Source: Desulfomonilia bacterium
GTDB lineage: Bacteria; Desulfobacterota; Desulfomonilia; UBA1062
Direction of reading: 5' to 3'
NCBI GenBank assembly: GCA_050014195.1
Contig: JBEKDT010000010.1
Coordinates: 64,001-128,000, forward strand
Length of the DNA: 64,000 nt
Under the pieces are notes generated by a model. The model was not told the origin of the DNA. It searched no databases and was given only the letters and a program-made list of their open reading frames with translations. Positions within the stretch are counted from its first letter, which is position 1. Every line of letters starts with the position of its first letter. Both the position numbers and the translations under genes were made by a program. Positions 3,219 to 51,862 of the stretch are shown one piece after another.

Positions 3219-3677
3219 ATGATACGAAAACCATCCATAGCCGAGGCAACCGAGATAAAAAGTCTCATTGAACCGTTCGTGAAGGAAGGCCTTATCCTCC
3301 CCAGATCGCTCCACTCCGTTTATACTACGATTAGAGATTTTTGGGTAAATACCGTAGAGGAGGAACCCTCAATTATCAATGGTTGCTGCGCACTTCACAT
3401 TTCATGGGCTGATCTTGCTGAAATACGAACCCTTGCGGTAAGGAGAGAATATCAAGGCAGAGGTGATGGTGTCGCCCTGGTGGAGGCCTGTCTCAAGGAA
3501 GCCAGGGACCTTGGGCTGAAGAAGGTGTTCACACTCACCTATGTGCCTGATTTCTTCAAAAAGAACGGATTTTACGAGGTAGACAAGGCAAAACTTCCAA
3601 ACAAGATCTGGGCCGACTGCATTCACTGCCAGTACTTCCCGGACTGCAGAGAGATTGCACTCATTTACGAACTTTAG
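3219..3677 (+). CDS. GNAT N-acetyltransferase (short ArgA-like)
   Basis: AEIRTLAV, YQGRGDG acetyl-CoA motif, C-terminal IWADCxxC; near argJ. Confidence 0.8.
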   Translation: MIRKPSIAEATEIKSLIEPFVKEGLILPRSLHSVYTTIRDFWVNTVEEEPSIINGCCALHISWADLAEIRTLAVRREYQGRGDGVALVEACLKEARDLGLKKVFTLTYVPDFFKKNGFYEVDKAKLPNKIWADCIHCQYFPDCREIALIYEL

Positions 3678-3685
3678 AGGTAAGC

Positions 3686-5011
3686 GTGAAACTAGCCGAG
3701 ACCATGGAAAGGGCAGCCGCCCTTCTCAAACATGAATCAATCAATGACTTTGAGATATTCGGTATCTTTTCTGATGCCATCCGGGCAGAATCGAAACATG
3801 GAGAAGTGGATTTTCTCAACCGTTCGTCCGAGAGCGGCATAAGTATCCGGGTGCTCATAGACAATGCTATCGGGTTCTCCTATGGTAAGGATGCAAATGA
3901 TTCCCTGATCGAGGCAGCCATCACCTCAGCCAGATATCAGTTCAAAGACGGGCATAACCGATTTCCCAGCCCTCGTGGCGGATATCCGAGTGCGGATTCA
4001 TTTGATCATGATATTGCCTCTCTGAGCCCGGAAGGGTGTATACAGAGGGCTATACATCTCGAGCAGTCCGCTCGGGATGCAGACCCGCGAGTGGAGAATG
4101 TCAGGAAGGCCTCATTTTCCAGATCATCCTCTGAGATCCGGATTATCAATTCCTACGGAATACAATCATCTTTTTTTGTAACTTCGATTGCAGCCTCCCT
4201 CATGGTCACGGTAAGACAGGACAGTGATGTGCAATCAGGCTATGATTTTGATTTCAGCCATTTTCTTGAAGGGTTCGATGTCGAGAGGGTGGGTAAGGCC
4301 GCTGTATTGCGAGCATCCGAGATACTAGGGGCGCGTCAGCTCAAGACTACAAAGATACCTGTGCTATTCGACAGAACAAGCACTGCAGAGATGATTGAAT
4401 TCATATCCGATGCATTTCTTGGAGAAAACGTGATCAAGGGCAAGTCAGCCCTCAAGGATAAGCTAGGAAAGAAATGCTTCTCCGATTGTATCAACATCTT
4501 TGACAATCCTTTGGACTCTCGAGCGGCAGACTCATGCCCCTTTGATGGAGAAGGGGTCACCTCCCTAAATACCGCTCTGGTAAAGGCAGGGACTGTTGTA
4601 GCATTTCTCTATGACACTTACTGGGCCTCTCTTGCCGGTACTCAATCCACGGGAAGCTCGGTACGCGGCGGGTACCGGTCATGGCCATCTCTCGGTATCC
4701 GGCACCTCTGTCTGGAGCCTTCCCCCGCGCCGATTTCCACATACCTTGCGGATCTGCCCCTGGTGCTGAAAGTAACCGATATCATGGGCATGCACACAGC
4801 AAATCCAGTCACCGGAGAACTGTCCGTCGGCATCAACGGGGTCCTGCTGGAAAAAGGGAGTCCGGTCTATCCCGTGCGTGAAGCAGCGTTATCGGGTAAT
4901 ATCTATGAAATGTTCTCCAGAGTATTGGCAGTAGGGGACGATCCAAGGAGTTTTGGGCATGTGCTCTGCCCATCAATACTTGTGGATGCACTTGACATAA
5001 GTTCCCAGTGA
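3686..5011 (+). CDS. TldD/PmbA family protein (PmbA-like)
   Basis: PFDGEGV, MGMHTANPVTGELS motifs. Confidence 0.9.
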   Translation: MKLAETMERAAALLKHESINDFEIFGIFSDAIRAESKHGEVDFLNRSSESGISIRVLIDNAIGFSYGKDANDSLIEAAITSARYQFKDGHNRFPSPRGGYPSADSFDHDIASLSPEGCIQRAIHLEQSARDADPRVENVRKASFSRSSSEIRIINSYGIQSSFFVTSIAASLMVTVRQDSDVQSGYDFDFSHFLEGFDVERVGKAAVLRASEILGARQLKTTKIPVLFDRTSTAEMIEFISDAFLGENVIKGKSALKDKLGKKCFSDCINIFDNPLDSRAADSCPFDGEGVTSLNTALVKAGTVVAFLYDTYWASLAGTQSTGSSVRGGYRSWPSLGIRHLCLEPSPAPISTYLADLPLVLKVTDIMGMHTANPVTGELSVGINGVLLEKGSPVYPVREAALSGNIYEMFSRVLAVGDDPRSFGHVLCPSILVDALDISSQ

Positions 5012-37057: not shown

Positions 37058-38467
37058 TTAACCCTTGGGAATCAGGGAGAGCACATAATCCCAGATTTCC
37101 AGGGTCCTGTTCAACGACTCATCATCGTGCTGCATGCATGTGTACATGCGTGTTCCTGCAAGGGTGCACAATCCGTGTGCCATAGTGACGACCTGGTAGT
37201 CATCCGCGACCTGCTTGCGTGTAAGGATCTGCATGAACGCATCCGGAGCGGAGAGGTCCATAGAGAAAAACGCGGTGGTTACATAATGCATGATCGGTCC
37301 GAAATTGTAGACGAAGAACCCCAGGTCGGCCCGTGTGGCAAACAGATCATTCAATGCCTTGGTGAGCCTGTTCGCATAGTCGGTTGCCTTTTTCACGGCA
37401 TCATATTCGACCATGAGCTTCAGGGCATGGTAGCATGCGGCCGTGGAGATGGGGTTGGCTGCCAATGTGCCTCCGATGTAGATCTTTTCGCCCAGACCGC
37501 CGTGACACACGGCCATAACGTCCTTGCGGCCGGCCACAGCGCCTGCCGAAGGGTAACCGTGGGCAATGATCTTACCCAAAACAGTCAGGTCCGGCATGAT
37601 GCCGAATAACTTCTGGGCGCCTCCCATATCTACCCTGAACCCGGTCACTACTTCGTCAAAAATAAGAAGCGACCCATACTGGTCGCACAGCTCGCGGATG
37701 CGGCGGTTCCAGTCCGGATGGACCGGGTGCGCGCCGGATTCTCCGCCGATGGGCTCCACCATGATTCCGGCAACCCCGCCCTTGTCCTTATTGTCTTCAA
37801 AGGCCTTTTCCAATGCCTCAAAGTTATTGGGTGGTACATCGACAAGGTGAGCATAGCTTTCATTCGTGATGCCACGGGAGTTTAAAGACCCGGTTCCGGG
37901 GATGTGCAGGGAGTACACCATCTGATCGGACCAGCCGTGGTAGCTCCCTGAGATCTTGATGATCTTGAGTTTCCCGGTGAAGGCCCGGGCTATGCGGATG
38001 GCAGCCATGTCCGCCTCTGTGCCTGACTGGAGAAAACGGACCATCTCAACAGCGGGCATGTGTTTGATGATCTCCTCGGCGGCCAGGAGCTCATATTCCG
38101 AGGTCAGTCCCGTAGACGGCCCCTTTTCCCGGATGATCTGAATGATCTTTTCATCCAGCGGGTCGAAGCTGTGTCCCAGGATAATGGGCGCCCCGGACAT
38201 GAGATAGTCTATGTAGGCGTTGCCGTCCACATCCCACACATAGTAGCCTTTGGCCCTGTCCATGGCCAGAGGAAAGGGTTTGTTCTGGCTCAGGTTATGC
38301 TCGACCCCGCCGGGGATGATCCCCTGGGCCTTTTCAAAGATCTTAAGCGACTTCTTGTTCCGCTCGGTGTAGAGCTTGCGTTCCGCAGCCAGTTTGTCGT
38401 CCGGGATCGGGTGCGCCGGTTTTGATAGGATCTCGTTTCTCCGAGATATGATCTCTTGATATTCCAT
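37058..38467 (-). CDS. Class III PLP aminotransferase (HemL/GSA-like)
   Basis: DVDGNAYID, SGTEA, SYHG, LLIFDEVVTGFR, LGK PLP lysine. Confidence 0.88.
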   Translation of the reverse strand: MEYQEIISRRNEILSKPAHPIPDDKLAAERKLYTERNKKSLKIFEKAQGIIPGGVEHNLSQNKPFPLAMDRAKGYYVWDVDGNAYIDYLMSGAPIILGHSFDPLDEKIIQIIREKGPSTGLTSEYELLAAEEIIKHMPAVEMVRFLQSGTEADMAAIRIARAFTGKLKIIKISGSYHGWSDQMVYSLHIPGTGSLNSRGITNESYAHLVDVPPNNFEALEKAFEDNKDKGGVAGIMVEPIGGESGAHPVHPDWNRRIRELCDQYGSLLIFDEVVTGFRVDMGGAQKLFGIMPDLTVLGKIIAHGYPSAGAVAGRKDVMAVCHGGLGEKIYIGGTLAANPISTAACYHALKLMVEYDAVKKATDYANRLTKALNDLFATRADLGFFVYNFGPIMHYVTTAFFSMDLSAPDAFMQILTRKQVADDYQVVTMAHGLCTLAGTRMYTCMQHDDESLNRTLEIWDYVLSLIPKG

Positions 38468-38489
38468 GGGAACACTGTCCTCCTATTTT

Positions 38490-40103
38490 TCATTGTCCCT
38501 GCGGCGGCAGGGAACATATGGTGGGTGCATTTTTATTCATTCGCGAACAGATCTTTTTGTGGAGCTTATACAGGTTCAGGAACTCGTCGAATATCTCGCT
38601 GTAGATTTTCGTGTTATCCGGATTGGGCTGGTATTCGGCCTTGATCCCGATGCGATCCGGGATTTCTTCCACCGTGATATACTTCAATGCAATTGCGGCA
38701 AGAAAGGCTGCACCGCGTGCATTTGCATAGATGGGGCCCTTGACCTGCCGGATGGGCCTGTTAAGGACATCGGCCATAATCTGCGACCAGACATCCGAAT
38801 TGGCGCCGCCGCCGATGAAATTGAGGTGCGTAAAAGGCCTTCCCATAAACTTTTCTACCGGGTCAAGCAGCCACCTCTGGTTGAATGCCACGCCTTCGAA
38901 TACGGCCCGGGCAATGTCTTCCCTGGTGTTTTCCAGGGACAGGTTGAAGAAGGAAGACCTGATGTGGCAGTCTTCAACAGGCGTGCGTTCTCCGTACAGC
39001 CAGGGGGTGAAGATGACATTGTTGGAGCCCGGCGGGACCCGCGAAACAATCTTGTCAAGAAACTTGAAGATGTCGGGGGTGTTTTCCTCAACCATGAGCT
39101 CGTCTTTGTGATACAGGATATTGTCCCTCAGCCAGGTAAGACACTTGCCTGCACACTCCTGCTCGGTGAGAATAAGGTATCGTCCGGGGATGGGGCTTGG
39201 GAATGAGCCGAAGGAGTGGAACAGATCGGTCTTTTTAAAAGGCACATGGGCCGAGATCCAGGAAGAGGTGCCGATGTAGATATGGCCCTCGAAATCTCTC
39301 ACCGCGCCCGAGCCCACGCACGCCGACGGCACGTCCGGGGTGCCGCCTATGACGGGTGTATCGGGCTTCAAGCCCAGCTCCGAAGCCACTTCTTTCTTTA
39401 CCGGCCCGAGTATGTCCACGGCCCGTATCAGGTCAGGAAGCTTTGCCCGATCGATCCGGGCCATCTTCAAAAGCCTGTCATGATAAACCACATGGGAGGG
39501 GTCGCGATTGTCCGTTACCCAGTGGAGCAGGATCGAATCGTAGGTGGCTGCAAACCTGCCCGTCAGACGCAGATTGATGTAATCCTTGGGTTCAAGAAAT
39601 TTATATGTCCTGGCATAGACATCAGGGTAGTCCCTCTTCAGCCAGAGTATGTGTGCAAGAGGGTCCTTGCCTGACGCGGCAGGTGCACCCCCTGTCAGCC
39701 GGAGCCAGTGCATGAGTTTCAGCAAGGGATAGCCCTCGAACTTGATGGGGCCTTTTAGTATATCCTTCAATGCATCAGAGCCCCTGCAGTCCATCCAGAT
39801 GATGGCGTTCATCAGGTTCCTGCCGTCCCGGTCCACCGGAACGGTGCCCGACCACTGGGTGGTGACGCTCACTGCGACAATGTCTTCAGCCGGCACCAGA
39901 CCCTTCACAAGCACTTTTTTCGAGGTGGACATAATGGCGTTCCACCAGCCTTCCGGGTCCTGCTCCGCACCTCCGCCGGGAAGCAGGATGACCTTGGTAT
40001 CCTGGAACTCGCTGTCCAGCACCTCACCATATACCGAGATCAGGGCGGTCTTGGGGCCGGATGTGCCCAGGTCGATGGCCAGTATGTATTTGTCTTTGCC
40101 CAT
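38490..40103 (-). CDS. FGGY family carbohydrate kinase (xylulokinase-like)
   Basis: AIDLGTSGPK, EQDP, IIWMD.R, YIGTS, PWLYGERTP, GGGANS. Confidence 0.92.
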   Translation of the reverse strand: MGKDKYILAIDLGTSGPKTALISVYGEVLDSEFQDTKVILLPGGGAEQDPEGWWNAIMSTSKKVLVKGLVPAEDIVAVSVTTQWSGTVPVDRDGRNLMNAIIWMDCRGSDALKDILKGPIKFEGYPLLKLMHWLRLTGGAPAASGKDPLAHILWLKRDYPDVYARTYKFLEPKDYINLRLTGRFAATYDSILLHWVTDNRDPSHVVYHDRLLKMARIDRAKLPDLIRAVDILGPVKKEVASELGLKPDTPVIGGTPDVPSACVGSGAVRDFEGHIYIGTSSWISAHVPFKKTDLFHSFGSFPSPIPGRYLILTEQECAGKCLTWLRDNILYHKDELMVEENTPDIFKFLDKIVSRVPPGSNNVIFTPWLYGERTPVEDCHIRSSFFNLSLENTREDIARAVFEGVAFNQRWLLDPVEKFMGRPFTHLNFIGGGANSDVWSQIMADVLNRPIRQVKGPIYANARGAAFLAAIALKYITVEEIPDRIGIKAEYQPNPDNTKIYSEIFDEFLNLYKLHKKICSRMNKNAPTICSLPPQGQ

Positions 40104-40151
40104 TTTAATTTATATCTTTGCCATGACCGTTAAACAAAGAATAGTGCCGGT

Positions 40152-40186
40152 CAGGTCAAAAAAGTGATAAATCTGGCCAAAAGGAT
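40152..40186. promoter_or_regulatory. Direct-repeat site, putative AraC-family binding site
   Basis: CAGGTCAAAAAAGTGATAAATCTGGCCAAAAGGAT between kinase and divergent araC. Confidence 0.6.
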
Positions 40187-40273
40187 AGTGTTATGATATA
40201 GGGGATACAATTGATTTTGTGAGATAGAATACATTCCGGGTAAATGACTTCACATCGGGGGGGCGATCTGGCC

Positions 40274-41281
40274 ATGGATAGGATACCTTCCTACAGTGCG
40301 AAATGGCTGGTGCATCAGCTTGTCATACGGGGTGTCCCCTTAGACCGGATCCTGAGAGGCACGGACCTGTCCGAGGCCTGGATGAAAGATGAGAATGCGC
40401 TCATCGCACAGGCCGACTATCTGAAGATCGTGGGCAATGCCTTTGATGAAACAAAAGATCCCGCCCTGGCGCTTCATCTGGGCCAGAAGCCGAACCTGGG
40501 AGAGCTCGGCATATGGGGATATGCCATCATCAGCAGCCCGACCCTGGGGGAGGCCAATGAGGTAACCCTGCAGTTCTGGGAGCTGAACGGTTCCCTGGTT
40601 ACGCTGTCCTACAGGAAGGAAAACGATTGTTCCACGTGGGAGATCCGCCCGGCCTTTCCCATGGATAGCCCCCGCGCATGGATTTTTGCCGTGGAAGAGC
40701 TTCTTGCAACCTTTTTTTCCGGTTCCGATTTCATATCGGATCAGGAATTTCCGATCACCGAGATCTGCCTGTCCTACCCAGACCCCGGCCATGGCGACCT
40801 TTACCGGGAGATGTTCAAGTGCCCCATACATTTCAACAAGGACGTGGACCTCTTCCGCATCTGCTTTCCCTTCGAGGATGTCCCCACATCCATGGGCAAC
40901 CCCCATCTGGCCGCCATATGCAAGCAGCAGTGCCAGGAGCTCATGGCAAAGCTCAAGGGGTCTGACGAGCTGATAGGCGCCATCCGGGATGCAATCATCG
41001 CTTCCCTGGGCCAGTTCCCGCGCCTGCCGGAGATCGCTGCACACCTGGCCATGAGCCCGCGGACCCTCCGCAGACGCCTTCTGGAAAGAAATACCACCTA
41101 CCAGCATATCCTCGATGAGATTCGTTCGGAATTGGCAAAAGAATATATCGTGACCACCAGTCTCAGCGTTGACCAGATCGCCAGCCGCATCGGGTTTTCC
41201 GAGGCCACTACGCTGCGGCGCGCCTTTAAGAAATGGACCGGCCTGAATATCAAAGAGTTCAGGCGGATGGAAGTACAATAA
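40274..41281 (+). CDS. AraC family regulator (OruR/SphR-type N-terminal domain)
   Basis: LGIWGYAIISSPTLGEA, MSPRTLRRRL, IGFSEATTLRRAFKKWTG. Confidence 0.92.
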   Translation: MDRIPSYSAKWLVHQLVIRGVPLDRILRGTDLSEAWMKDENALIAQADYLKIVGNAFDETKDPALALHLGQKPNLGELGIWGYAIISSPTLGEANEVTLQFWELNGSLVTLSYRKENDCSTWEIRPAFPMDSPRAWIFAVEELLATFFSGSDFISDQEFPITEICLSYPDPGHGDLYREMFKCPIHFNKDVDLFRICFPFEDVPTSMGNPHLAAICKQQCQELMAKLKGSDELIGAIRDAIIASLGQFPRLPEIAAHLAMSPRTLRRRLLERNTTYQHILDEIRSELAKEYIVTTSLSVDQIASRIGFSEATTLRRAFKKWTGLNIKEFRRMEVQ

Positions 41282-41294
41282 AGAATAGAGGTGA

Positions 41295-41316
41295 ATGGTG
41301 AGCTGCATAGGATATG
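41295..41316. repeat. Degenerate copy of tRNA-Val 3' end (att-like)
   Basis: ATGGTGAGCTGCATAGGATATG vs ATGGTGGGCCGCATAGGATTTG at 51787 (19/22). Confidence 0.65.
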
Positions 41317-41606
41317 GGCCTTCTATTTTGAAGAGTGTGTCAATGTGAATTCAATAAGTTATGTCTCAAAAAACCTGTTGGCAAGTTGTTGGCAAATCAC
41401 TGGAAAACAACTGGAGATCTCAATATGAAACATATGAAGGATATGATGAAAATTGGACTAATAGTTAATCGAAGTAATTAACGGTTTGGCAGCTATATTA
41501 AATCTGACAAATATTACCAGAAGTGTAGAAAAGTTAAAGTGAAGCAAGATCCAATGAAATCAGATATTCTACAATATTCCTTAATATATTGTAATTATTG
41601 ATACTT

Positions 41607-43058
41607 CTACGTTTTGGATATCTTCTCCGCACCATAAAAATAACTATATCCTGACTTTATAGAAGCCAATGTTGGCCTCACTATTCTATATTCTAATAAC
41701 TCTTCTTTATTTTCAACTGTAGCCATTATACTAATAGTTTCATTAAGAGCTAATAGATCATCACTAAGAAATCCAATATCATTTTTTCCCTGATCAACTA
41801 TAAATATTCCATGATCTCCAATATTCAATCGTTTATTTACCTTTTCTCTTTTACTTCTTCTCTTATCAGACATAATATAAGAGAATTCTCTTTGATCTTC
41901 TACTCCAACAATATTAGTCAAATAAATATAGTTCTTAAGATTCTCTGGAGAGATTATATGATTATTTTCTAGTGATGAAATAACTTGATTTAATCTATCA
42001 CCTTCTTCGGTTAGAAATTGATCACGTATTGATTTTACTTGAGGGTTCTCAATATTGTTATGTATCAAGTCTATTAGCAAATTTGGCTGCATTTCAATTC
42101 TGCGGTAAAGTATACTGTTTAAATATTGTATCAATAACAATGCAGTAAGTATTTTTGCATCAAAATAGGGGATAGATATAGTTGATGCTAATTCATTGTT
42201 AAAAGTAAGAATATTAATAAATCTCTTAATGTCCCTAGGGTTATCTCCAAGTCCTTTTACTAATAAATCTCTGCAGTGTTTTAATTCTTCAGAAAGCATA
42301 GGATCTATGAAGATTTCCATAGATTGAGGTGCTATAGGTGGTATATTAAAAGGAAGTTGAACAATTTTATCAAGATATTGAGATTCACTTAGATCAATAT
42401 CTTTGTAATGATATTTGATGCTTTTTTCAAGTTCTGGGCGATCAACACCCAAAAAATATACACAGTTAGGTAAATTTAAATATAATTTCAACGATTCTAA
42501 TAGACTTAATATTTGTGGAGGCAAACAACGATCTAAGTCGTCAATAAAAAAAACTAACCTCTTTTTTGGTTCACCCTGAGCTTTATTTATGAGTTTTTCG
42601 AAATGTTTCCTCAACCGAACACGTGCTTCACGTACTTGGAAGCGTTCTTCTTCAAAACGTTTACCTAGATCATCTATATCTTGTGCACTCATAAGGGTGG
42701 TTGCCTTTAATAGAATAGAACTGAAAGCACTAGCAATTACTATAAGTAACTTTTTTTCCTCTTCATCCATGTTAAAAGTGTCAACTACAGTATGGAGTAA
42801 AGCAAGAACAGGATTTTCATCAAATTGATGTTGCCATGGATCAAACCAAACAGACTTAGTACTAGGTGAATTTAATTGCTGTTCGATGAGTTTCATAAGT
42901 GAAGTTTTACCAATTCCCCAACTCCCGTAAAGACCTATTACTATTGGAGTTTCACATTTTTCAGCCATACGTGCAAACGCCTTAGCATACTGGTTTCTAT
43001 TTAGATTATCAGTATTTGTTGCCTCATCATTTCGAATTATTGCTTCAAAAGATTTCAT
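41607..43058 (-). CDS. KAP family P-loop NTPase with PilZ-like C-terminus
   Basis: GLYGSWGIGKTS, WFDPW, VFFIDDLDRC, YLDKIVQLPF, NPRDIKRFIN; tail DKRRSKR. Confidence 0.85.
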   Translation of the reverse strand: MKSFEAIIRNDEATNTDNLNRNQYAKAFARMAEKCETPIVIGLYGSWGIGKTSLMKLIEQQLNSPSTKSVWFDPWQHQFDENPVLALLHTVVDTFNMDEEEKKLLIVIASAFSSILLKATTLMSAQDIDDLGKRFEEERFQVREARVRLRKHFEKLINKAQGEPKKRLVFFIDDLDRCLPPQILSLLESLKLYLNLPNCVYFLGVDRPELEKSIKYHYKDIDLSESQYLDKIVQLPFNIPPIAPQSMEIFIDPMLSEELKHCRDLLVKGLGDNPRDIKRFINILTFNNELASTISIPYFDAKILTALLLIQYLNSILYRRIEMQPNLLIDLIHNNIENPQVKSIRDQFLTEEGDRLNQVISSLENNHIISPENLKNYIYLTNIVGVEDQREFSYIMSDKRRSKREKVNKRLNIGDHGIFIVDQGKNDIGFLSDDLLALNETISIMATVENKEELLEYRIVRPTLASIKSGYSYFYGAEKISKT

Positions 43059-43323
43059 TTATTGAATCCCCTTTTCTCATTACATGGTAATTTATCAATT
43101 ATAACTAACCATTTATAATTCTCCTCGTAACATAAGAACCATCTCGATTTAATGTTTTCTCAGTCATCTTGATTGCATAGATTCAACAGTGGATCACCCG
43201 TCAGTTAGACCATCTTTTACGATCTTCTATCCTACACTATTTACAGAAGAACAATTGCATTATATCTAGATATCAGGTGCAAGGCAATATGCTATTATAA
43301 AACTTAGACAATAACTTTTGTGC

Positions 43324-43431
43324 GAGACTGTTGAAAAACCTCAAAAATCGGTTTTTATATTTTTTAACTGATTGATTTTTCATCACATAAAAATGTCGAA
43401 AACTTATGGTGGGGGCTTTTTCAACAGACTC
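43324..43431. mobile_element. MITE-like IS remnant, 108 bp
   Basis: TIRs GAGACTGTTGAAAAA / TTTTTCAACAGACTC (14/15), flanked by TGC on both sides. Confidence 0.55.
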
Positions 43432-43500
43432 TGCCATTAGATACGTTTGGGATAAAAGTCGACTCATACAGAGGTTTATACCTAAGATCTCTAGTTAATT

Positions 43501-43534
43501 AAAAAAATATAGACGGAGGAATCGAACTCCCGTA
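43501..43534 (-). terminator. Probable intrinsic terminator of the RT gene (T-arm-like loop)
   Basis: Minus strand ACGGGAG-TTCGATTC-CTCCGT followed by T-run. Confidence 0.5.
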
Positions 43535-43598
43535 CTACATGACCTAGCCTAGTTTTACAGGCGCATTACACATCTTTTACACAATTAATTTAATATCA

Positions 43599-44909
43599 TT
43601 AATCTTTTATAATCTTATTTATAATAGGTTTTAATTTAATATCAGATAAAAGATGAACCCCTAATAGTCTTCTCTTGTTTACATTGTCAGTTGAATATTT
43701 ACTGTTTATAAGTTTGTTATAATCTATAATATATTCTCTTAAGAGCTTATCAATTTTATTATCAATATGTTCCAGTAATTGAGTATCATTACAAAAATAA
43801 TATTGGTTACCCCATCCGAATACAATATTATCTACCATACTTAGTGTCTCTGCGAATGACCTTTTATCCTTTAATTTACATTTTATGGGAGTTTTCATGG
43901 ATTCTAAGCTATTATTAAAATTATTTTTAACTTTCTCTATAAGTCTAAAGCATGACTTTCTATCAGGCCTAATTAATCCTTTTAAAACTTCACAGCCAAG
44001 AAATTTTAGACCATTAGCAGTATAACCAAAATCTGATTTAGCTTTATCACTTAAAGGATCATATGCTCTTAAATTTAGTTGTTTTAAAATCTCTTGTGCA
44101 CTCTTAAAAGCGGTAAATACCTTACTTCTTGATTTACCTAAAATTAAAAAATCATCTATGTACCTTAAACATCTTATTCCACGATCATTCATTCTTATGT
44201 CGAACTCGTTAAGAAGAATATTCCCTAAGAGGGGAGATAAACAACAACCTTGGGCTACTCCTATATCAAATATTGGGAATAGGTGCTTATATTTTCCAAG
44301 TATATTTAAATTTGACAATTCCACATCGGTAGCTTTTATAAGTAAGTCATTGAATATTGGATCATCAATTTCATCCTTAATTTTTGATAAAACTATTTCT
44401 CTTGGAATATTTCTGAAAAATTCTTGTATGTCAGAACGGATATAATATTGTGCTCCATTAAGAATTGTTTCATATGTGACTCTTATTGCTTCAGGAACTC
44501 CTTGATCTTCTATACCTCCGAAACTTGAATCATTAATAAAATATTTTTGTATGTTAGAGTCTTCTTGGAGGACATCTAGAATACTTCTTTGTACAATCCT
44601 ATTTTTTACTGAAGCCTTGACTATTGGTCTAAAATTTTGATTTGGTTTTGGTAATAATATTCCATCTGATTTATCGAACTTAAATATCTGATCACGGAGT
44701 TGGCGGGATATCCTAGAAATATGCCGTTCGGAATCATTACTGAAATTTTTTATAATATTTCTGGTTTTTTCTGATTTTGATTTTAAACCGCTCTCCAATA
44801 CTATCTTCCAGGCCTGTCGCAATCTAAGAATACTTCTAACTTTCTTGTTTGAGTTATTAATAATATCTCCTCTTTGCTGAGCCACGTTGGCAAACCCAAT
44901 CTCAGCCAT
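43599..44909 (-). CDS. Reverse transcriptase, group II intron-like (G2L4-like), YIDD active site
   Basis: RPI, RIVQR, SFGG, SDIQEFF, GVAQGCCLSPLLGNILL, RYIDD, FLG, thumb GWGNQY; start uncertain. Confidence 0.88.
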   Translation of the reverse strand: MAEIGFANVAQQRGDIINNSNKKVRSILRLRQAWKIVLESGLKSKSEKTRNIIKNFSNDSERHISRISRQLRDQIFKFDKSDGILLPKPNQNFRPIVKASVKNRIVQRSILDVLQEDSNIQKYFINDSSFGGIEDQGVPEAIRVTYETILNGAQYYIRSDIQEFFRNIPREIVLSKIKDEIDDPIFNDLLIKATDVELSNLNILGKYKHLFPIFDIGVAQGCCLSPLLGNILLNEFDIRMNDRGIRCLRYIDDFLILGKSRSKVFTAFKSAQEILKQLNLRAYDPLSDKAKSDFGYTANGLKFLGCEVLKGLIRPDRKSCFRLIEKVKNNFNNSLESMKTPIKCKLKDKRSFAETLSMVDNIVFGWGNQYYFCNDTQLLEHIDNKIDKLLREYIIDYNKLINSKYSTDNVNKRRLLGVHLLSDIKLKPIINKIIKD

Positions 44910-45062
44910 TTGAAGAGCATGTCATTCTGTGGGGGTTTCAGTGTCTGACCCGACCCAGCCGACAGTATTGTTGTCGGTGCATCTTTGAGCTTGAGCAGCG
45001 CCATAGGATGGCCCATTCAGTAAAGATGCCAGAATGAACGATGGTACACATATAGTGCCCAT
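44862..45062 (-). ncRNA. Putative structured RT-associated leader/ncRNA
   Basis: GC-rich patch in AT-rich DNA with nested stems TCATTCTG/CAGAATGA, GCATCTTT/AAAGATGC, GCCAT/ATGGC, CCGACA/TGTCGG, GCTGAG/CTCAGC. Confidence 0.65.
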
Positions 45063-45096
45063 AAGAACACTATATACTACATATAGTAAAAATCAA
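45043..45096 (-). promoter_or_regulatory. Sigma70-like promoter (TTGATT-N16-TATAGT) overlapped by tandem NrdR-box-like sites
   Basis: -35 at 45096-45091, -10 at 45074-45069; ATACTACATATAGTAA (45074) and GGTACACATATAGTGC (45043), 31 bp apart. Confidence 0.55.
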
Positions 45097-45222
45097 GTTA
45101 AATTATATCGAATAAATTTCATATAATAGAAGCCTAATTTAAATATGGGAAAAATAGACTAAGATTTCAGTGGAATATTAAAATACTAGCGAAGACAGGC
45201 AGGCACCGAAGTCAGAGTCAAG

Positions 45223-45341
45223 GCGGTCACTGGTAGGTTCCCTGGATCTCGATCAGGGCTAAGGCTTTCAGTCCCGGAACGGAGTTTCACGTAGTGCAGG
45301 GCCGAAGCCTCCCTAAGCGAGATAGCGGGGCCAGTGACAGC
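45223..45341. other. GC-rich multi-branched structured element of unknown type
   Basis: Closing stem GTCACTGG/CCAGTGAC enclosing CCCTG/CAGGG, AGGCTT/AAGCCT and CCC/GGG stems. Confidence 0.45.
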
Positions 45342-45345
45342 ATAG

Positions 45346-45630
45346 AAATCGGGGGACACCATACTAGTTTTGTTGTTTCCTGGGTCTGCCGCCCTTGAGA
45401 GAAGCCAACCTTTCAATTACTTATCTTCCAATAAAAACTAGTAATGAACCTGGGATTCAAACCAAATCTGGGGACACCATACTAGTTTTGTTATTTTCTA
45501 GGTCTACAGCACTTGAGGAGGGCTAACCTTTTCAATAACTTATTTCCCAATCTGACAATAATGCATCATTTTCCTATGGTCGTCCAGTAGGTTCATATCT
45601 AAAATAATAGTTTGGTATCTCCGGATTTCC
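45346..45630. repeat. Two ~88-bp direct repeats plus an inverted partial copy (REP-like GGGGACACCATACT motif)
   Basis: Copies at 45346-45432 and 45464-45551; inverted degenerate copy 45601-45630. Confidence 0.75.
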
Positions 45631-45777
45631 ACGATCATTATTTTCTCCTGTTAACTGTAGAGTGGGACGAGAGCAACGAAATCCACCAAGGCATTATAAT
45701 ACATAGGGAAAAAATGAAGGCAGATCTCATCAAATGAAATGACAATGTGTGTAGAGTTCTTTGAAATCAGCAGAGTT

Positions 45778-46089
45778 CTAAATAACCTTCTTGTTGCGAC
45801 TCCCATCACGTTTACGGAAATGATGTTCCGCCCTGTCCAAGGGCGTCCAGATCAGTCACCTGGTATGGATTTGGTTCTCTTTTGAACGGAACAGGTTAGG
45901 AATCGCAGTGAGTTCGCATCCTGGATTTCCCATGAGTCCTCCGATGAGAAACGAAGCACCCAAAATTGCCAGAGCCCCCGTGCCTATAACTGTAAGGGTG
46001 TCCACACCGACAGCCCAGATCAGCACAAAGGTCCCAACCCCAAAAAGCACGCGTGATACTCGTCCGAACAACAACGGTTCAAGCTTCAT
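45778..46089 (-). CDS. Small membrane protein (DUF6410-like), probable selenoprotein with UGA at 45856-45858
   Basis: Two TM helices, PGCELTAIPNL..IHTR-UGA-LIWTPLD; frame stays open to TAG at 45778; SECIS-like hairpin 10 nt after UGA. Confidence 0.65.
45821..45854 (-). promoter_or_regulatory. Bacterial SECIS-like hairpin
   Basis: TGAT-CTGGA-CGCCCT-TGGAC-AGGGCG-GAAC-ATCA immediately 3' of in-frame TGA. Confidence 0.6.
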
Positions 46090-46322
46090 CCTGTTCTCCT
46101 ACCCTTATATAAATGACCAGACTGTGACTTGTCCACCTAATGTGTCTAAAAACTTCATGAACCCGGGATTCATGTCATGAGGATAAGAAATATCAACACT
46201 GCCGCTACAAAGATAACAACCGGACTAAATATCTTTATCAGTATCCTGAGATCATCCATTTACAAAAGCCCCGCCCTTTCAGTTGTTCCGCTGGAGGTAT
46301 CCTGACAGATCCTTTTTTTATC

Positions 46323-47546
46323 TCATGCCTGCTGAAGATGCACAGGGACTTTGATATCATGGAGCAACAGCGCCAGGATGAAGGCGACCCCAAAGAGTAT
46401 GGTAATCGCGGTCATGTTGAAGAGGAACACGATGGGCAGACCGCTTATCTGGCCGCTCAGCATCAAAATCCCGTTTGAGGTAGCCTCCGGTACCGGATGG
46501 GTCTTTTCCACCGCATAGGTCAGCCCGACCGGCATGGCCGAGATGAGGAAGAAACCGAAGACAAAACCGCACAGGCCTAAAAGAACAATCGAGGAGAGAT
46601 ACTGCAGGAAAAGGGAAAGCGGCACCGCCATACCGGCCGCCATGATCAGGAAGATCCTCCTTTTGTGGTACTTGTCGGACAGTGCAGACAGGATTACCGC
46701 CCCGCACATGCCCCCGATCACGATCAGCCCGCCGACTATGCCCGGGGCGAGGGCCGAGTCGATGTCAAGCGGCCGGTTTTTGAATATGTAATCGATCTTG
46801 GTCAGGATGGCATTAAACGCGCCTACGCCAATGAAAAAGAGTCCCAAGAGGAAGAGAAAGTCGCGGTTTCTGAAAAGCGCTTTCAATCCGATGGTCATGG
46901 TGACCTTTTTCTCGGCTGCGATTGCGTTGGGCGGCAGCTTTGGTTTGTCCTTCACCAATACGAGATACAGGATCATGCCGATCAGGGCGGGGATGCCGTA
47001 CAGATACAGGACGGCATCGATCCCCTGCCTGATCGCGCCGATATTCCGGTAATGCGCGAGGATAAAATCGGTGGCGAACATGACGATCGTGAAGCCGATG
47101 AACAGGGACATGGTCAACAATCCCGATGCCAGGGCCTCTTCATTTTCCGGGAACCAGTTCGATGCCAGTTTGGTAAAGGCATTGAGCACGAACGGTTGAG
47201 CGATGGCACATCCGATCATGCAGGCGAGGAGCCAGCCGTAACTTGGTGCGAAGATACGGAGAAAGCCGCACAGGCCCACCAGGACAACGCCGATCCCTGC
47301 CCCCTTCTTCAGCCCGATGTTGTCGATGCACCAGGCGGCGGGGAGGCAGAAGGGGATCCAAGCGAGCATGGCCAGTATGGCAAGCAAATCAATGGCGTCG
47401 ATATTTCCGTGGGTATAGACGGCAGCAGCATCCCTGGCAATAGGAGCGAAGGTCATCCACATGATCTGGGACATGGCTATGTTCAGCATGAAAACTCCCA
47501 ATACGACCCAGCGGTAAGGGGATACGGATGAATGGATATTTTGCAT
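46323..47546 (-). CDS. MFS transporter (FLVCR/SLC49-like), paralog 2
   Basis: Co-linear and highly similar to 31582-32808 (shared AVEKTHPVPEATSNGILMLSGQI). Confidence 0.85.
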   Translation of the reverse strand: MQNIHSSVSPYRWVVLGVFMLNIAMSQIMWMTFAPIARDAAAVYTHGNIDAIDLLAILAMLAWIPFCLPAAWCIDNIGLKKGAGIGVVLVGLCGFLRIFAPSYGWLLACMIGCAIAQPFVLNAFTKLASNWFPENEEALASGLLTMSLFIGFTIVMFATDFILAHYRNIGAIRQGIDAVLYLYGIPALIGMILYLVLVKDKPKLPPNAIAAEKKVTMTIGLKALFRNRDFLFLLGLFFIGVGAFNAILTKIDYIFKNRPLDIDSALAPGIVGGLIVIGGMCGAVILSALSDKYHKRRIFLIMAAGMAVPLSLFLQYLSSIVLLGLCGFVFGFFLISAMPVGLTYAVEKTHPVPEATSNGILMLSGQISGLPIVFLFNMTAITILFGVAFILALLLHDIKVPVHLQQA

Positions 47547-47659
47547 AAAACCTCCTCTTGAAAATAACGGGCGTAAAGCTGCTCCGAATAAGGACGACAG
47601 ATGCTGAGGTCAAAAGCTGCACCAGTGCAAGTAAAACCGAGGCGGCAATAATCAGGCCT

Positions 47660-48070
47660 TTACGCCACGGGTTTTAAGCCTATCAGCACGGCAATAGCAA
47701 CGCCAAAGCCGACACACCAGATGTTGATAAAAGCATTTAATACCAGGTCAAGCTTGGAGGTCATATATATGCCGTTTTGAATATTGAAGCTGAAGTCCAA
47801 CAACCCCAAGAATACCAGTGCGCCGGCCGCTACCAGCGACAGCCTGCTGCCCAATGGATTATGTAACAGAAGCAGTATGCCGGCTATTAGCAGTAGTATG
47901 GCCAGCAATCCATCCGGCAGCGGGAAGGAGTGCTCATAGGCATAATAGCATTGCGGAGGATTTTCCGGCGCAAGGCCTATGGTAAAAAAGCCTATCCAGA
48001 ACAGTATGATCCCGATGCCTGTCAGCAGCTCAAGTACGGCAATTGTTTTCAGTCCTTCTATTTCAATCAT
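47660..48070 (-). CDS. Hypothetical 4-TM membrane protein
   Basis: Hydrophobic helices, YYAYEHSFPLPD motif. Confidence 0.7.
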   Translation of the reverse strand: MIEIEGLKTIAVLELLTGIGIILFWIGFFTIGLAPENPPQCYYAYEHSFPLPDGLLAILLLIAGILLLLHNPLGSRLSLVAAGALVFLGLLDFSFNIQNGIYMTSKLDLVLNAFINIWCVGFGVAIAVLIGLKPVA

Positions 48071-48121
48071 TTCAGCACCTCTTCAGCATGATTGTTTTGT
48101 TTAAAAAGTCATACATCGCCC

Positions 48122-48937
48122 CTACCTTTTCTGCGTTTTATTTATGGACGAGTCCATGACCATATCAATTATAAAAGGCATATGCCTCTTCAAGAAATAG
48201 GTGAGCTTACCGTCAAATCCCGGAATTATCATGAAGGTTTTTTTCCTGATGCCGTCAATAAGCTCTTTTGCAACCGCATCGCTGCTCATGACCTTGGCGC
48301 TTGCAGAGATGGCCTTGGTTTCTGCAGGCTTTGTGAGGTTTTCAGTGGCAAAGCCCGGTGTATCGGTATCGGGCGGGCAAAGCACCTGAACGAAGATGTT
48401 GTATTTTTTCAGCTCGCTCTTGAGGCTTTCCGAAAATCCCACGATGGCGAATTTCGAAGCCGCATAATCGCAGTAACCGAAAACACCCAGAAAGCCCACC
48501 ATAGAAGAAACATTGACGATCACGCCGCCTTTAACCTTCATGTGCGGTACAAGAACCGAACAGGTATTCCATATGCCGTAGAGGTTTGTCTTCATGGTGT
48601 CATCGAACTGCTGGTAGGTGATATCCATAAAATATCGCGGATAGGCCCTGCCCGCACAGTTAATCAACACATCAGGTACCCCGAATTCGGCCAGTGCCGA
48701 TGAAAGCACGGTTTCGACGCTGTCCCTTTTAGAGACATCCATGGATCTGCCGGCAAACTTCTGTTCCGCGTTTGCGCCGCAGGACTGTATTTGCTTTAAG
48801 GCTTCATCCAGAACCTGCTGCCGCCTGCTGAAGATAATTACACCGGCTCCCCTGGTCGCCATTAATTTCGCGGTCGCCAAGCCGATACCGGATGAACCAC
48901 CGGTTATGTAAACTAATTTGTCCTTGAAATCTTTCAT
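48122..48937 (-). CDS. SDR oxidoreductase, 3-ketodihydrosphingosine reductase-like
   Basis: TGGSSGIG, NCAG, YAASK, PPDTDTPGFATENLTKP.ET motif. Confidence 0.8.
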   Translation of the reverse strand: MKDFKDKLVYITGGSSGIGLATAKLMATRGAGVIIFSRRQQVLDEALKQIQSCGANAEQKFAGRSMDVSKRDSVETVLSSALAEFGVPDVLINCAGRAYPRYFMDITYQQFDDTMKTNLYGIWNTCSVLVPHMKVKGGVIVNVSSMVGFLGVFGYCDYAASKFAIVGFSESLKSELKKYNIFVQVLCPPDTDTPGFATENLTKPAETKAISASAKVMSSDAVAKELIDGIRKKTFMIIPGFDGKLTYFLKRHMPFIIDMVMDSSINKTQKR

Positions 48938-48950
48938 TTCCTTCTCCCCC

Positions 48951-49958
48951 TTACTTCTGCTTGAGCGAAGCGACATCAAGCGTCTTCAGCCATTCCATGG
49001 TTTGCCGGAACCCTTCCCGGTAGGTGATGCGGGGCTTCCAGCCCAACTCCCGTTCAGCCTTGTCAATGGAGAACCTGAATCTCGAACCCAGGTTAGTAAC
49101 AGTATAGGTAGTGAGCAAAGGACGCTTCAGGATGCGGAACAGCTTCCATATGAATTCCATCACCCTGGCCGCGGCCATGGCCGACCAATAGGGGATGTAG
49201 GTCTTGATGGGCGGCACACCCAGCGCTTCGGCTATTCCCGTGCAGAATTCCTCCAGGGTTGTCGACTCGCCGTCGTGCACGAGGTAGCCATTGCCGACAG
49301 CCCTTTCATCCTCAGAGATCAGCATCAGCAGGTCGACCAGGTTATCGATATAGGTGGGCCACACGATGGCGCCCTTACGCCAGAAGATCAGTTCCTTCTT
49401 GATAATTGCATCGGCAAGCAGCGGCACAAAGGTCTGGTCGCCCTCGCCGAATACCCACAGCGGGTAGACCATGGCCAGCGGCAATCCCTGCTCCTCGTGG
49501 TACCTGCGCATGACCTTCTCGGCATCTATCTTGGAATCAGCATAGGGTTCGCCCCAGTATTGCAGCGGCAAACTTTCATCCATCACCTTCGACTCGTCCG
49601 TGCCGAACACGTCGCAGGTGCTGATATCCACCAGGCGGGACACCTTCGCGTCAACGGCCGCCCGGCAAATATTCTCAGCGCCGCCCACCGTGACCTCCCA
49701 GAACAGCTTCTTGGGCGCCCAGTCGGTAACTACCGCCGCAGTATGGAAGATGATATCCATGTCCCCTACCGCGCGCCTGACCGCTTCGTAATCGCGGATG
49801 TCGCCGTTGACGACCTCCACACCCTGCCCTTTCAACCAGGCCTCACCGGCATCGCCCGGCAGCACCAGCGCGCGAACCCTGTTGCCCTTTGCCAGGTTCG
49901 CTTTTACTACATGCCGTCCGATGAATCCTGTAGCTCCGGTTATTAAAACCCTTTTCAT
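48951..49958 (-). CDS. NAD-dependent epimerase/dehydratase (3-beta-HSD-like extended SDR)
   Basis: TGATGFIG, FHTAA, YADSK, KAERELGWKP. Confidence 0.88.
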   Translation of the reverse strand: MKRVLITGATGFIGRHVVKANLAKGNRVRALVLPGDAGEAWLKGQGVEVVNGDIRDYEAVRRAVGDMDIIFHTAAVVTDWAPKKLFWEVTVGGAENICRAAVDAKVSRLVDISTCDVFGTDESKVMDESLPLQYWGEPYADSKIDAEKVMRRYHEEQGLPLAMVYPLWVFGEGDQTFVPLLADAIIKKELIFWRKGAIVWPTYIDNLVDLLMLISEDERAVGNGYLVHDGESTTLEEFCTGIAEALGVPPIKTYIPYWSAMAAARVMEFIWKLFRILKRPLLTTYTVTNLGSRFRFSIDKAERELGWKPRITYREGFRQTMEWLKTLDVASLKQK

Positions 49959-50110
49959 GTCTCAACCTCTCACTGTTATGATTGCGCCCATATTATATTT
50001 ATATCAATGTACTGCTAAAAAACAAATTATGCTCATTCATGCGCATATATATTACTGTAAATCTCTGAATGGTTTTACTGAAAGGAAGAGTTGAATATTA
50101 CAGGAGAAAC

Positions 50111-51787: not shown

Positions 51788-51862
51788 TGGTGGGCCGCAT
51801 AGGATTTGAACCTATGACTTCTACCGTGTGAAGGTAGCGCTCTCCCCCTGAGCTAGCGGCCC
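51788..51862 (-). tRNA. tRNA-Val(CAC)
   Basis: GGGCCGCTAGCTCAGGGGGAGAGCGCTACCTT-CAC-ACGGTAGAAGTCATAGGTTCAAATCCTATGCGGCCCACCA cloverleaf with CCA. Confidence 0.97.

Follow-up and report, generated by a model that had tools for sequence, protein, structure and literature searches.

A covarying four-way-junction RNA precedes a G2L4-family reverse transcriptase gene with a single upstream repeat

G2L4 is the one reverse transcriptase (RT) of the group-II-intron-like kind in bacteria with a worked-out cellular role, and it has been presented as a domesticated, RNA-free polymerase of DNA repair. The locus described here raises the question of whether such an enzyme has an RNA of its own. It lies in a 64,000-nt stretch of a Desulfomonilia bacterium assembly (GCA_050014195.1, contig JBEKDT010000010.1, positions 64,001 to 128,000; hereafter the window, whose own numbering is used throughout), where a preliminary description made from the sequence alone had pointed to a stand-alone RT with the active-site motif YIDD behind a structured upstream RNA, and had proposed that this RNA serves as a dedicated template or scaffold for anti-phage cDNA synthesis. 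We found that the RT belongs to the G2L4 family and that the element in front of it, a long direct repeat (LDR), is a conserved, strand-specific, covarying structured RNA linked exclusively to this RT family. A 2022 study had recorded its upstream repeats and offered no explanation of them; what is new here is that the LDR is a covarying structured RNA outside Rfam. Because a folded LDR precedes nearly all relatives, the G2L4 ‘DNA-repair’ RT probably has an as yet undescribed RNA partner, and from its sequence we read the window locus as a ‘solo-LDR’ G2L4 locus.

The enzyme is encoded on the minus strand and, as the preliminary description had stated, the gene is intact, with the Pfam domain RVT_1 matching residues 87-307 (E 6.4e-21).

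43599..44909, minus strand: open reading frame (ORF) of the G2L4-family reverse transcriptase, 436 aa, YIDD at residues 250-253, true start uncertain

When the protein was searched against all solved structures, the two entries titled ‘Group II intron-like 4 reverse transcriptase’, 9d5x and 9d4s, came out on top with 242.6 and 241.4 bits (E 7.5e-71, about 1e-70), residues 22-425 aligning with residues 6-410 of the 411-aa solved G2L4 RT, and the third-best structure, a group II intron RT, reached only 61.5 bits. An alignment of 21 homologs shows no variation at Y250, D252 and D253 and at least 90% conservation of I251; YIDD in place of YADD at the RT5 active site is given as a mark of G2L4 in the accessible text of Toro and Nisa-Martinez (2014). 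Since both G2L4 structures are end-to-end best matches and YIDD is conserved, sequence comparison places the RT in the G2L4 family, which makes specific the G2L-type label of the preliminary description. No extra domains were found in the RT, the DNA-binding (D) and endonuclease (En) domains being absent. Among other RT models, NCBIfam group_II_RT_mat matched residues 50-394 with 144 bits, under its cut-off of 300, retron_St85_RT gave 44.5 bits (cut-off 235) and Drt2 24.5 bits (cut-off 390), Drt3a and Drt4 were likewise far under their cut-offs, and PADLOC ranked its generic RT model best (148 bits) and RT_UG17 second (123 bits). The database held 850 homologs at E<=1e-3, the best 120 of them at about 45-66% identity, and identity to the Pseudomonas aeruginosa G2L4 RT is only about 36-40%.

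Upstream of this gene, the leader (44860-45075, minus strand) folds with -74.4 kcal/mol (z -3.47) and the junction alone (44918-45040, minus strand) with -43.4 kcal/mol (z -3.69), with 0 of 200 shuffles as good in either case. The leader helices drawn in the preliminary description were all reproduced, both by the minimum free energy (MFE) fold and by the comparative model, as follows.

44920..45038, minus strand: LDR element, a four-way-junction RNA in solo copy (model R1 102.5 bits, E 5e-20; fold z -3.69)
45037-45030/44929-44922, minus strand: closing stem P1 of the LDR (MFE fold and comparative model)
45029-45022/44986-44979, minus strand: long arm P2 of the LDR, with an inner GGGCC..GGCGC hairpin (the GCCAU hairpin of the preliminary description)
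44977-44959, minus strand: hairpin P3 of the LDR (MFE fold and comparative model)
about 44957-44931, minus strand: arm P4 of the LDR (MFE fold and comparative model)

To place this fold among its relatives, we used a scan of one genome per species that gave 60 loci, 57 of them (L002-L058) clear relatives. Aligned with raw MAFFT and folded with RNAalifold, 30 LDR copies yielded no more than 4 pairs, and a structure-guided model was needed; single-sequence folding gave the closing stem and three arms in 12 of 12 LDR copies, and those folds supplied the 43-bp consensus and 12 seed sequences of covariance model R1. Run over 61 sources, this model gave 54 matches, every one of them on the strand of the RT and at most about 720 nt upstream of it, including non-seed copies and the single copies of five loci (L005, L011, L013, L041 and L044). 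In the 4.2-Mb genome to which the window belongs, its one match was the window LDR (150 of 791 candidates scored). The family is missing from Rfam 15 at every threshold tried, and Rfam searches of the window gave no family in 40000-48000 at E<=1 and noise only in 44850-45100 at E<=10 with permissive filters.

The pairing is preserved by changes on both sides of the helices. Across the 54 aligned copies (model-fitted alignment A4), 79.6% of 2163 cells pair, compared with 61.9% after shuffling (0 of 500 shuffles) and 39-46% when partners were slid, and two-sided changes occur in 40 of 43 LDR pairs, with a covariation score of 0.452 vs 0.188. Counting a single copy from each of 33 loci leaves 1292 cells, of which 1022 pair. 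Cells with G-U or U-G number 243 and those with A-C or C-A number 100, a 2.4-fold excess that indicates an RNA read on the RT-sense strand. The element has a mean column identity of 37% (30 copies) and is conserved from Pseudomonas across genomes that bear such labels as Nitrospira, Acidobacteriota, delta-proteobacterial and Bdellovibrionales. Of 13 divergent LDRs that R1 missed or barely matched, 10 fold on their own into a closing stem and three arms, these copies being judged by single-sequence folds only. The covariation analysis of homologous upstream regions proposed in the preliminary description thus turned up covarying structure, and its notion of a dedicated RNA has stood, given an element that is conserved, found only upstream of this RT family and present once in its own genome. 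Five loci (L021, L022, L031, L036 and L042) carry a variant leader beyond the reach of R1, with shared UGAUGGYGGCCACUGC and GAGCUUC..GAAGCAAGAG and several arms, which probably needs a model of its own.

Missed in the preliminary description was that this element is already known as DNA: it is the LDR of Park et al. 2022 (bioRxiv 10.1101/2022.03.14.484287), whose accessible text describes two ‘palindromic’ LDRs of about 140 bp separated by a spacer of about 240 bp in about 70% of Pseudomonas G2L4 cases. A pair of 137-nt repeats, 99% identical, occurs at a spacing of 376 nt in the P. aeruginosa locus of our set (L067, with an RT homolog of 35.9% identity), and the two best R1 matches there, at 21.8 and 12.7 bits, coincide exactly with them. 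As these repeats fit the published LDR description, the window junction corresponds to one LDR copy. Just downstream of the RT, L067 also carries a recombinase and a TIR-domain protein.

Ahead of the LDR the window has a single good promoter candidate, from which leader and RT would be transcribed together.

45069..45096, minus strand: sigma-70-like promoter candidate TTGATT-16-TATAGT, 9/12 consensus, the only good match, for a leader and RT transcript

In an AT-rich region promoter-like matches are common (27 found vs 21.2 expected), which makes this match weak by itself, and relatives support it by analogy: 24 of 37 loci have a -35/-10 pair whose end stands 2-9 nt ahead of the distal LDR, and a match of at least 9/12 precedes the distal LDR in 13 of 37 loci compared with 4 of 99 control windows. 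A promoter at the 5' edge of the LDR in relatives implies that the RNA starts at the element. At its other end the LDR is followed by a second, smaller structure.

44876..44906, minus strand: start-proximal hairpin, 6-bp stem GCUGAG/CUCAGC, conserved loop of about 19 nt

The core pairs of this hairpin are 44906-44901/44881-44876. In a MAFFT alignment of 49 loci (A7, not model-fitted), 72.6% of stem cells are paired vs 64.5% after shuffling (0 of 500) and 16-52% when slid, and pair 87/110 is GC in 19 loci and AU in 16. A pseudoknot screen of the hairpin loop against LDR columns gave just two weak 4-bp runs of G/C-rich columns, and no terminator-like site was found between the LDR and the ORF. 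The preliminary description had drawn a further ‘5' hairpin’ ahead of the LDR; it pairs in the MFE fold as drawn but overlaps the -10 box and has no counterpart in relatives.

45050..45075, minus strand: AT-rich palindrome (the ‘5' hairpin’), of uncertain membership in the RNA

Relatives differ in the number of LDR copies. Two long direct repeats are present in 33 of 57 relatives, with aligned lengths of 97-506 nt, identities of 85.6-100% (mostly at least 97%) and a period of 321-454 nt, and the end of the proximal copy stands 72-126 nt ahead of RT residue 30 in these 33 two-copy loci. Of the other 24 relatives, five have less than 300 nt upstream, four begin inside the RT, three have less than 650 nt, three contain N and two have broken RT genes, leaving seven (L005, L011, L013, L021, L033, L041 and L044) with clean upstream sequence and no repeat pair. 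Five of these (L005, L011, L013, L041 and L044) have a solo LDR with promoter and hairpin and without the spacer motif, and the window likewise has one LDR copy and no spacer. At L019 (3039-3920) a 506-nt self-overlap with a period of 376 points to about three LDR copies and two spacers, so that LDR copy number ranges among loci from one to about three, as expected from recombination between repeats. One locus, L055 (about 3553-4740), is decaying: its distal LDR is intact (80.4 bits), the proximal one is mostly G/A-rich low-complexity sequence with the CCCCCACAGGAUG end left, and its RT is fragmentary, the match starting from query residue 77 and the open frame spanning only about 210 aa. The solo LDR of the window may be the product of recombination between two LDR copies, an event by which one LDR and the promoter upstream would be joined directly to the hairpin and RT and the spacer lost; a promoter upstream and a hairpin downstream of the window LDR are what such a recombination is expected to leave.

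An alternative is that the repeats work at the DNA level, serving a small mobile cassette as sites of recombination or mobility, with the RNA fold incidental. Near-identical direct repeats in one to about three copies would suit such sites, as would the accessible statement of Park et al. that loci occupy differing genomic places near tyrosine recombinases, the recombinase or integrase genes that flank a few relatives and the strain-specific distribution. We nevertheless consider it very improbable, given compensatory changes that keep one-strand pairing with G-U at 2.4 times A-C, a promoter at the 5' edge, an orientation and distance to the RT start that are fixed in 54 of 54 matches, repeats placed to one side of the gene instead of flanking it, and no recombinase family in more than 2 of 87 neighbours.

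The spacers of two-copy loci are themselves conserved (26 spacers; also L007 3605-3828 and L067 2547-2779). They begin with a long stem right after the first LDR (LDR1) that encloses GACCGG..GGACGGUC and UUUAUUU, and hold an internal sigma-70-like promoter TTGACA-16-TAnnnT that reaches at least 9/12 in 15 of 26, with the best match starting 93-117 nt past LDR1 in 17 of 26, and carries CAAAAACG between its boxes. Further along are GGAGG, a GCAAAAACGUGCC motif with a hairpin and, about 45 nt on, a second GCAAAAACGUGCC, an arrangement that suggests a second transcription start with repeated operator-like sites. Neither the spacer stem domain nor the internal promoter nor GCAAAAACGUGCC is found in the window. 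A conserved small spacer protein was considered and rejected: a ‘CKNVP’ ORF appears at 32 motif sites, but the peptides range from 12 to 93 aa and have unrelated tails, and for that reason we read the motif as a nucleotide-level signal. In L067 (P. aeruginosa plasmid NZ_CP131792.1) an annotated coding sequence for a 64-aa ‘hypothetical protein’ (2726-2920) starts at spacer ATGCAAAAACGTGCC and spans the entire proximal LDR; since peptides at this site are not conserved elsewhere, it probably does not represent a genuine gene.

Where translation of the RT begins bears on how close the hairpin stands to it. The window offers ATG at 44909, GTG at 44885, or ATT at 44864/44861 past a Shine-Dalgarno-like GAGGAG (44872-44867) that directly follows the hairpin. 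The database product (P0001) has 399 aa vs 436 aa for the window ORF and, by our reading of the sequence, starts at the TTG of codon 38, so that it would drop the invariant A33 and W34. In the nearest relatives, L002, L008 and L038, no in-frame ATG, GTG or TTG precedes the conserved N-terminus, and in these and the window AGAGG stands after the hairpin (window 44859-44873; L002 about 3971-4001), followed by ATC in L002 and L008 and by an in-frame ATT in the window. With canonical in-frame starts missing and AGAGG followed by ATC, non-canonical start codons are suggested for this subclade. Most other relatives have ATG 6-35 nt past the hairpin and no evident Shine-Dalgarno sequence. Eight of the 21 aligned homologs (P0005, P0015, P0017, P0029, P0054, P0082, P0090 and P0119) have N-terminal extensions bearing conserved ‘EPPQ’ and ‘AEPRL’; these peptides are the translated LDR 3' end (..GAGCCCCCACAG..) and start-proximal hairpin, and the extensions are probably gene-calling artefacts and not real protein.

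What, then, might the leader do? We favour, at somewhat better than an even chance, a horizontally acquired, free-standing G2L4 RT whose LDR and hairpin serve in cis as its RNA ligand or regulator. The transcript would begin about 25 nt before the four-way-junction LDR of about 120 nt, pass through the hairpin at the ribosome-binding region and continue into the RT ORF; LDR and hairpin would act as RNA in cis, and the RT, with its maturase-type thumb, is likely to bind this leader in a way similar to that in which proteins encoded by introns bind domain IVa at their own start codon. Such binding may set RT translation, hold the enzyme as a ribonucleoprotein until it is needed, or both. An RT-binding leader is favoured because its position abuts the translation start, because a maturase-type thumb is retained in a family without a known RNA, because fast sequence divergence with a kept fold suits protein-partner RNAs better than metabolite aptamers, and because the accessible text of Park et al. 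reports an LDR effect on survival, LDR co-expression having altered survival in Escherichia coli with protein level unchanged.

Several points weigh against this reading. The unchanged protein level reported by Park et al. makes a simple autoregulation of translation less likely and an effect on activity more so. The window -10 box ends 30 nt before the LDR, farther than in relatives, and its promoter scores only 9/12. Support for the hairpin is moderate, 33 of 500 shuffles matching its number of two-sided-change pairs, and the fitting of alignment A4 to the model, together with its inclusion of both copies of many loci, inflates the LDR cell counts, leaving the pair count unaffected. The enzyme may also differ from the one studied: in the RT3a ‘knot’, where the accessible G2L4 literature reports an acidic D182 and R190/R191 as conserved, E197 of the window RT aligns with D182 and a G and a K align with R190/R191 of the P. 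aeruginosa protein, in an insertion 2 residues shorter and a loop of uncertain alignment, and the G and K at the arginine positions imply that the window subclade may differ mechanistically.

A leader that ends at a ribosome-binding region could also be a riboswitch-like or trans-factor leader, with the junction sensing a host protein, or else an ion or small molecule, instead of the RT and gating RT expression via the hairpin. The location in a 5' untranslated region, an end-to-end P1, a multi-way junction with conserved junction nucleotides and the hairpin beside the ribosome-binding region all have the look of such an RNA, and the Mn2+ requirement of G2L4 activities, as given in the accessible literature, would make an ion or stress input sensible. 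On the other hand, a mean column identity of 37% (30 copies) is low for an aptamer, the LDR is tied to a single gene family, no Rfam riboswitch matched even at E<=10 with permissive filters, and identical copies split by an internal promoter are no known tandem-riboswitch layout, so we think this account quite unlikely.

The surroundings of the gene were examined for a partner of the RT. The locus lies in a 29-33% GC stretch of a genome of about 55% GC, and the RT was not found in 14 same-genus and 4 further same-family genomes (0 of 18); the low GC and this absence from related genomes fit horizontal acquisition. We let the largest ORF to either side represent the neighbours of each locus: no Pfam family was seen more than twice, either among the 47 downstream neighbours or among the 40 upstream ones, and no PADLOC family more than once, so that the RT does stand alone, as first described, and conservation is limited to the unit formed by the RT and its upstream region. 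The neighbours of relatives are mixed: housekeeping genes (SHMT, HisG, GyrB), integrases, resolvases, restriction-modification, IetS, PD-T7-5 and DarT1-associated NADAR. In the window, the neighbours are a 64-aa ORF without a Pfam match and a stand-alone KAP-family P-loop NTPase (483 aa, 41607-43058, minus strand) that lies in the same AT-rich island and has partial similarity to the defence proteins QatA, PDC-S20 and PifA. The KAP gene has its own promoter match (43287-43259) and appears to be a separate transcription unit. As a candidate RT partner it was rejected, tblastn against the 60 loci giving a hit only in L019, which shares 25% identity and stands about 3 kb upstream; with no conserved protein neighbour, the adjacent NTPase falls outside the RT unit.

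This context bears on the proposal of the preliminary description, namely that the leader is a non-coding RNA (ncRNA) serving as template, primer or scaffold for anti-phage cDNA, as in retrons, DRT2, DRT9 and DRT10. In its favour are a structured, covarying RNA just upstream of a free-standing RT, as in UG2, UG28 and UG17; fast sequence change with the fold kept, as the accessible literature reports for UG2 ncRNAs (R1 scores only 21.8 bits in Pseudomonas); an AT-rich, strain-specific island, with the RT in 0 of 18 same-family genomes and a QatA/PifA/PDC-S20-like KAP NTPase adjoining; and relatives that in some cases lie beside restriction-modification, IetS, PD-T7 or DarT-NADAR genes or a TIR protein. 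The argument from the island is nevertheless weak, the KAP NTPase being in a comparable position near 0 of 57 relatives and seemingly transcribed separately, and no effector or other partner is conserved. Phage records contain no RT homolog at E<=1e-30, and no repeat, template-like motif or second copy of the leader sequence was found in the genome of the window. As far as the accessible literature goes, the only experimentally described G2L4 role is double-strand-break repair by microhomology-mediated end joining, shown for the P. aeruginosa enzyme on DNA substrates, and DRT10 differs in having SLATT and a catalytic mutant named RT-YVAA where the window RT has no SLATT and YIDD. We therefore regard a template for anti-phage cDNA as unlikely.

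Downstream of the RT stop is one further candidate signal.

43501..43533, minus strand: terminator-like hairpin ACGGGAG..CCUCCGU, 5 nt, seven T; a by-eye reading missed by the terminator scan and of low weight

A T-arm-like sequence at about 43530 was considered as a tRNA remnant and is read as this terminator-like hairpin; the one tRNA that ARAGORN reports is tRNA-Val at 51788-51862. Immediately upstream of the RT promoter lies a GC-richer palindrome of about 165 nt (45186-45350; fold z -2.65 for the minus strand, -1.88 for the plus strand), and beside it are two 68-nt direct repeats (45346-45531, 82% identical, spaced 118 nt), from which a core of about 27-32 nt has two further occurrences in the genome, on contigs C22 and C4. 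Apart from these two upstream repeats, which are unrelated to any ORF, 41200-45950 holds no long pair resembling template and variable repeats, and no cas genes were found among the ORFs of 38000-50000. The stretch is present in 24 runs, all of them peat or wetland metagenome DNA contigs, with no RNA run among them.

The consequences extend beyond this locus. G2L4 keeps the maturase motif although no RNA is known for it (Simon and Zimmerly 2008, accessible text), and the LDR RNA gives this long-noted conservation a candidate RNA target. LDR function is now directly testable, and the window, with one LDR, one hairpin and the RT, is a natural minimal G2L4 unit and thus a convenient test construct. 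More tentatively, G2L4 RTs at large could be, instead of repair polymerases made of protein alone, ribonucleoproteins partnered by the hairpin and the LDR RNA that heads their own transcript, the RNA gating the enzyme or serving as primer or template upon DNA damage or infection, and the one-copy and two-copy forms being regulatory states that interconvert by recombination; we hold this wider proposal to be possible but doubtful.

Compared with known systems, the window locus shares with retrons, DRT2 (UG2), DRT9 (UG28) and DRT10 (UG17), as these appear in the accessible literature, a compact RT with a structured, family-specific RNA directly upstream in the same orientation. Retrons need an effector and msr/msd, whereas the window has no effector and no Rfam retron RNA match, and DRT10 combines an ncRNA, SLATT as effector and an RT, of which SLATT is missing here. 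Diversity-generating retroelements have a template and variable repeat pair near the RT, and none is present in 41200-45950; on retrons, diversity-generating retroelements, cas genes and group II introns, the Rfam, repeat, ORF and model searches agree with the preliminary description, which had seen none of them.

Group II introns offer a closer comparison for the protein. Intron-encoded proteins such as LtrA of Ll.LtrB bind intron domain IVa at their own start, and LtrA represses its own translation there. The window RT is a close relative of intron RTs that has kept a maturase-type thumb, and its hairpin stands, as domain IVa does, where translation of the RT itself begins or slightly ahead of that point. 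Unlike group II introns, the window has no intron, no domain V and no Rfam group II match (ribozyme domains D1-D4, D5/D6), and its main element, a four-way junction upstream of the hairpin, has no detectable similarity to intron domains.

The nearest system is the P. aeruginosa G2L4 itself. Park et al. treat the LDRs as DNA repeats that Pseudomonas strains conserve, and the accessible text gives no RNA structure or covariation for them; nor was a description of a G2L4 RNA structure found in the accessible G2L4 literature, although Figures 1C and S2 of Park et al. show the LDRs and may hold more. The window differs from the P. aeruginosa locus in having one LDR without a spacer, and in G and K at RT3a positions R190/R191. 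The two are alike, as far as the accessible account of the P. aeruginosa locus goes, in full-length RT similarity, YIDD, the lack of D and En domains and a low-GC, horizontally acquired setting, and in L067 the same LDR element, promoter, spacer motifs and start-proximal hairpin are recognisable.

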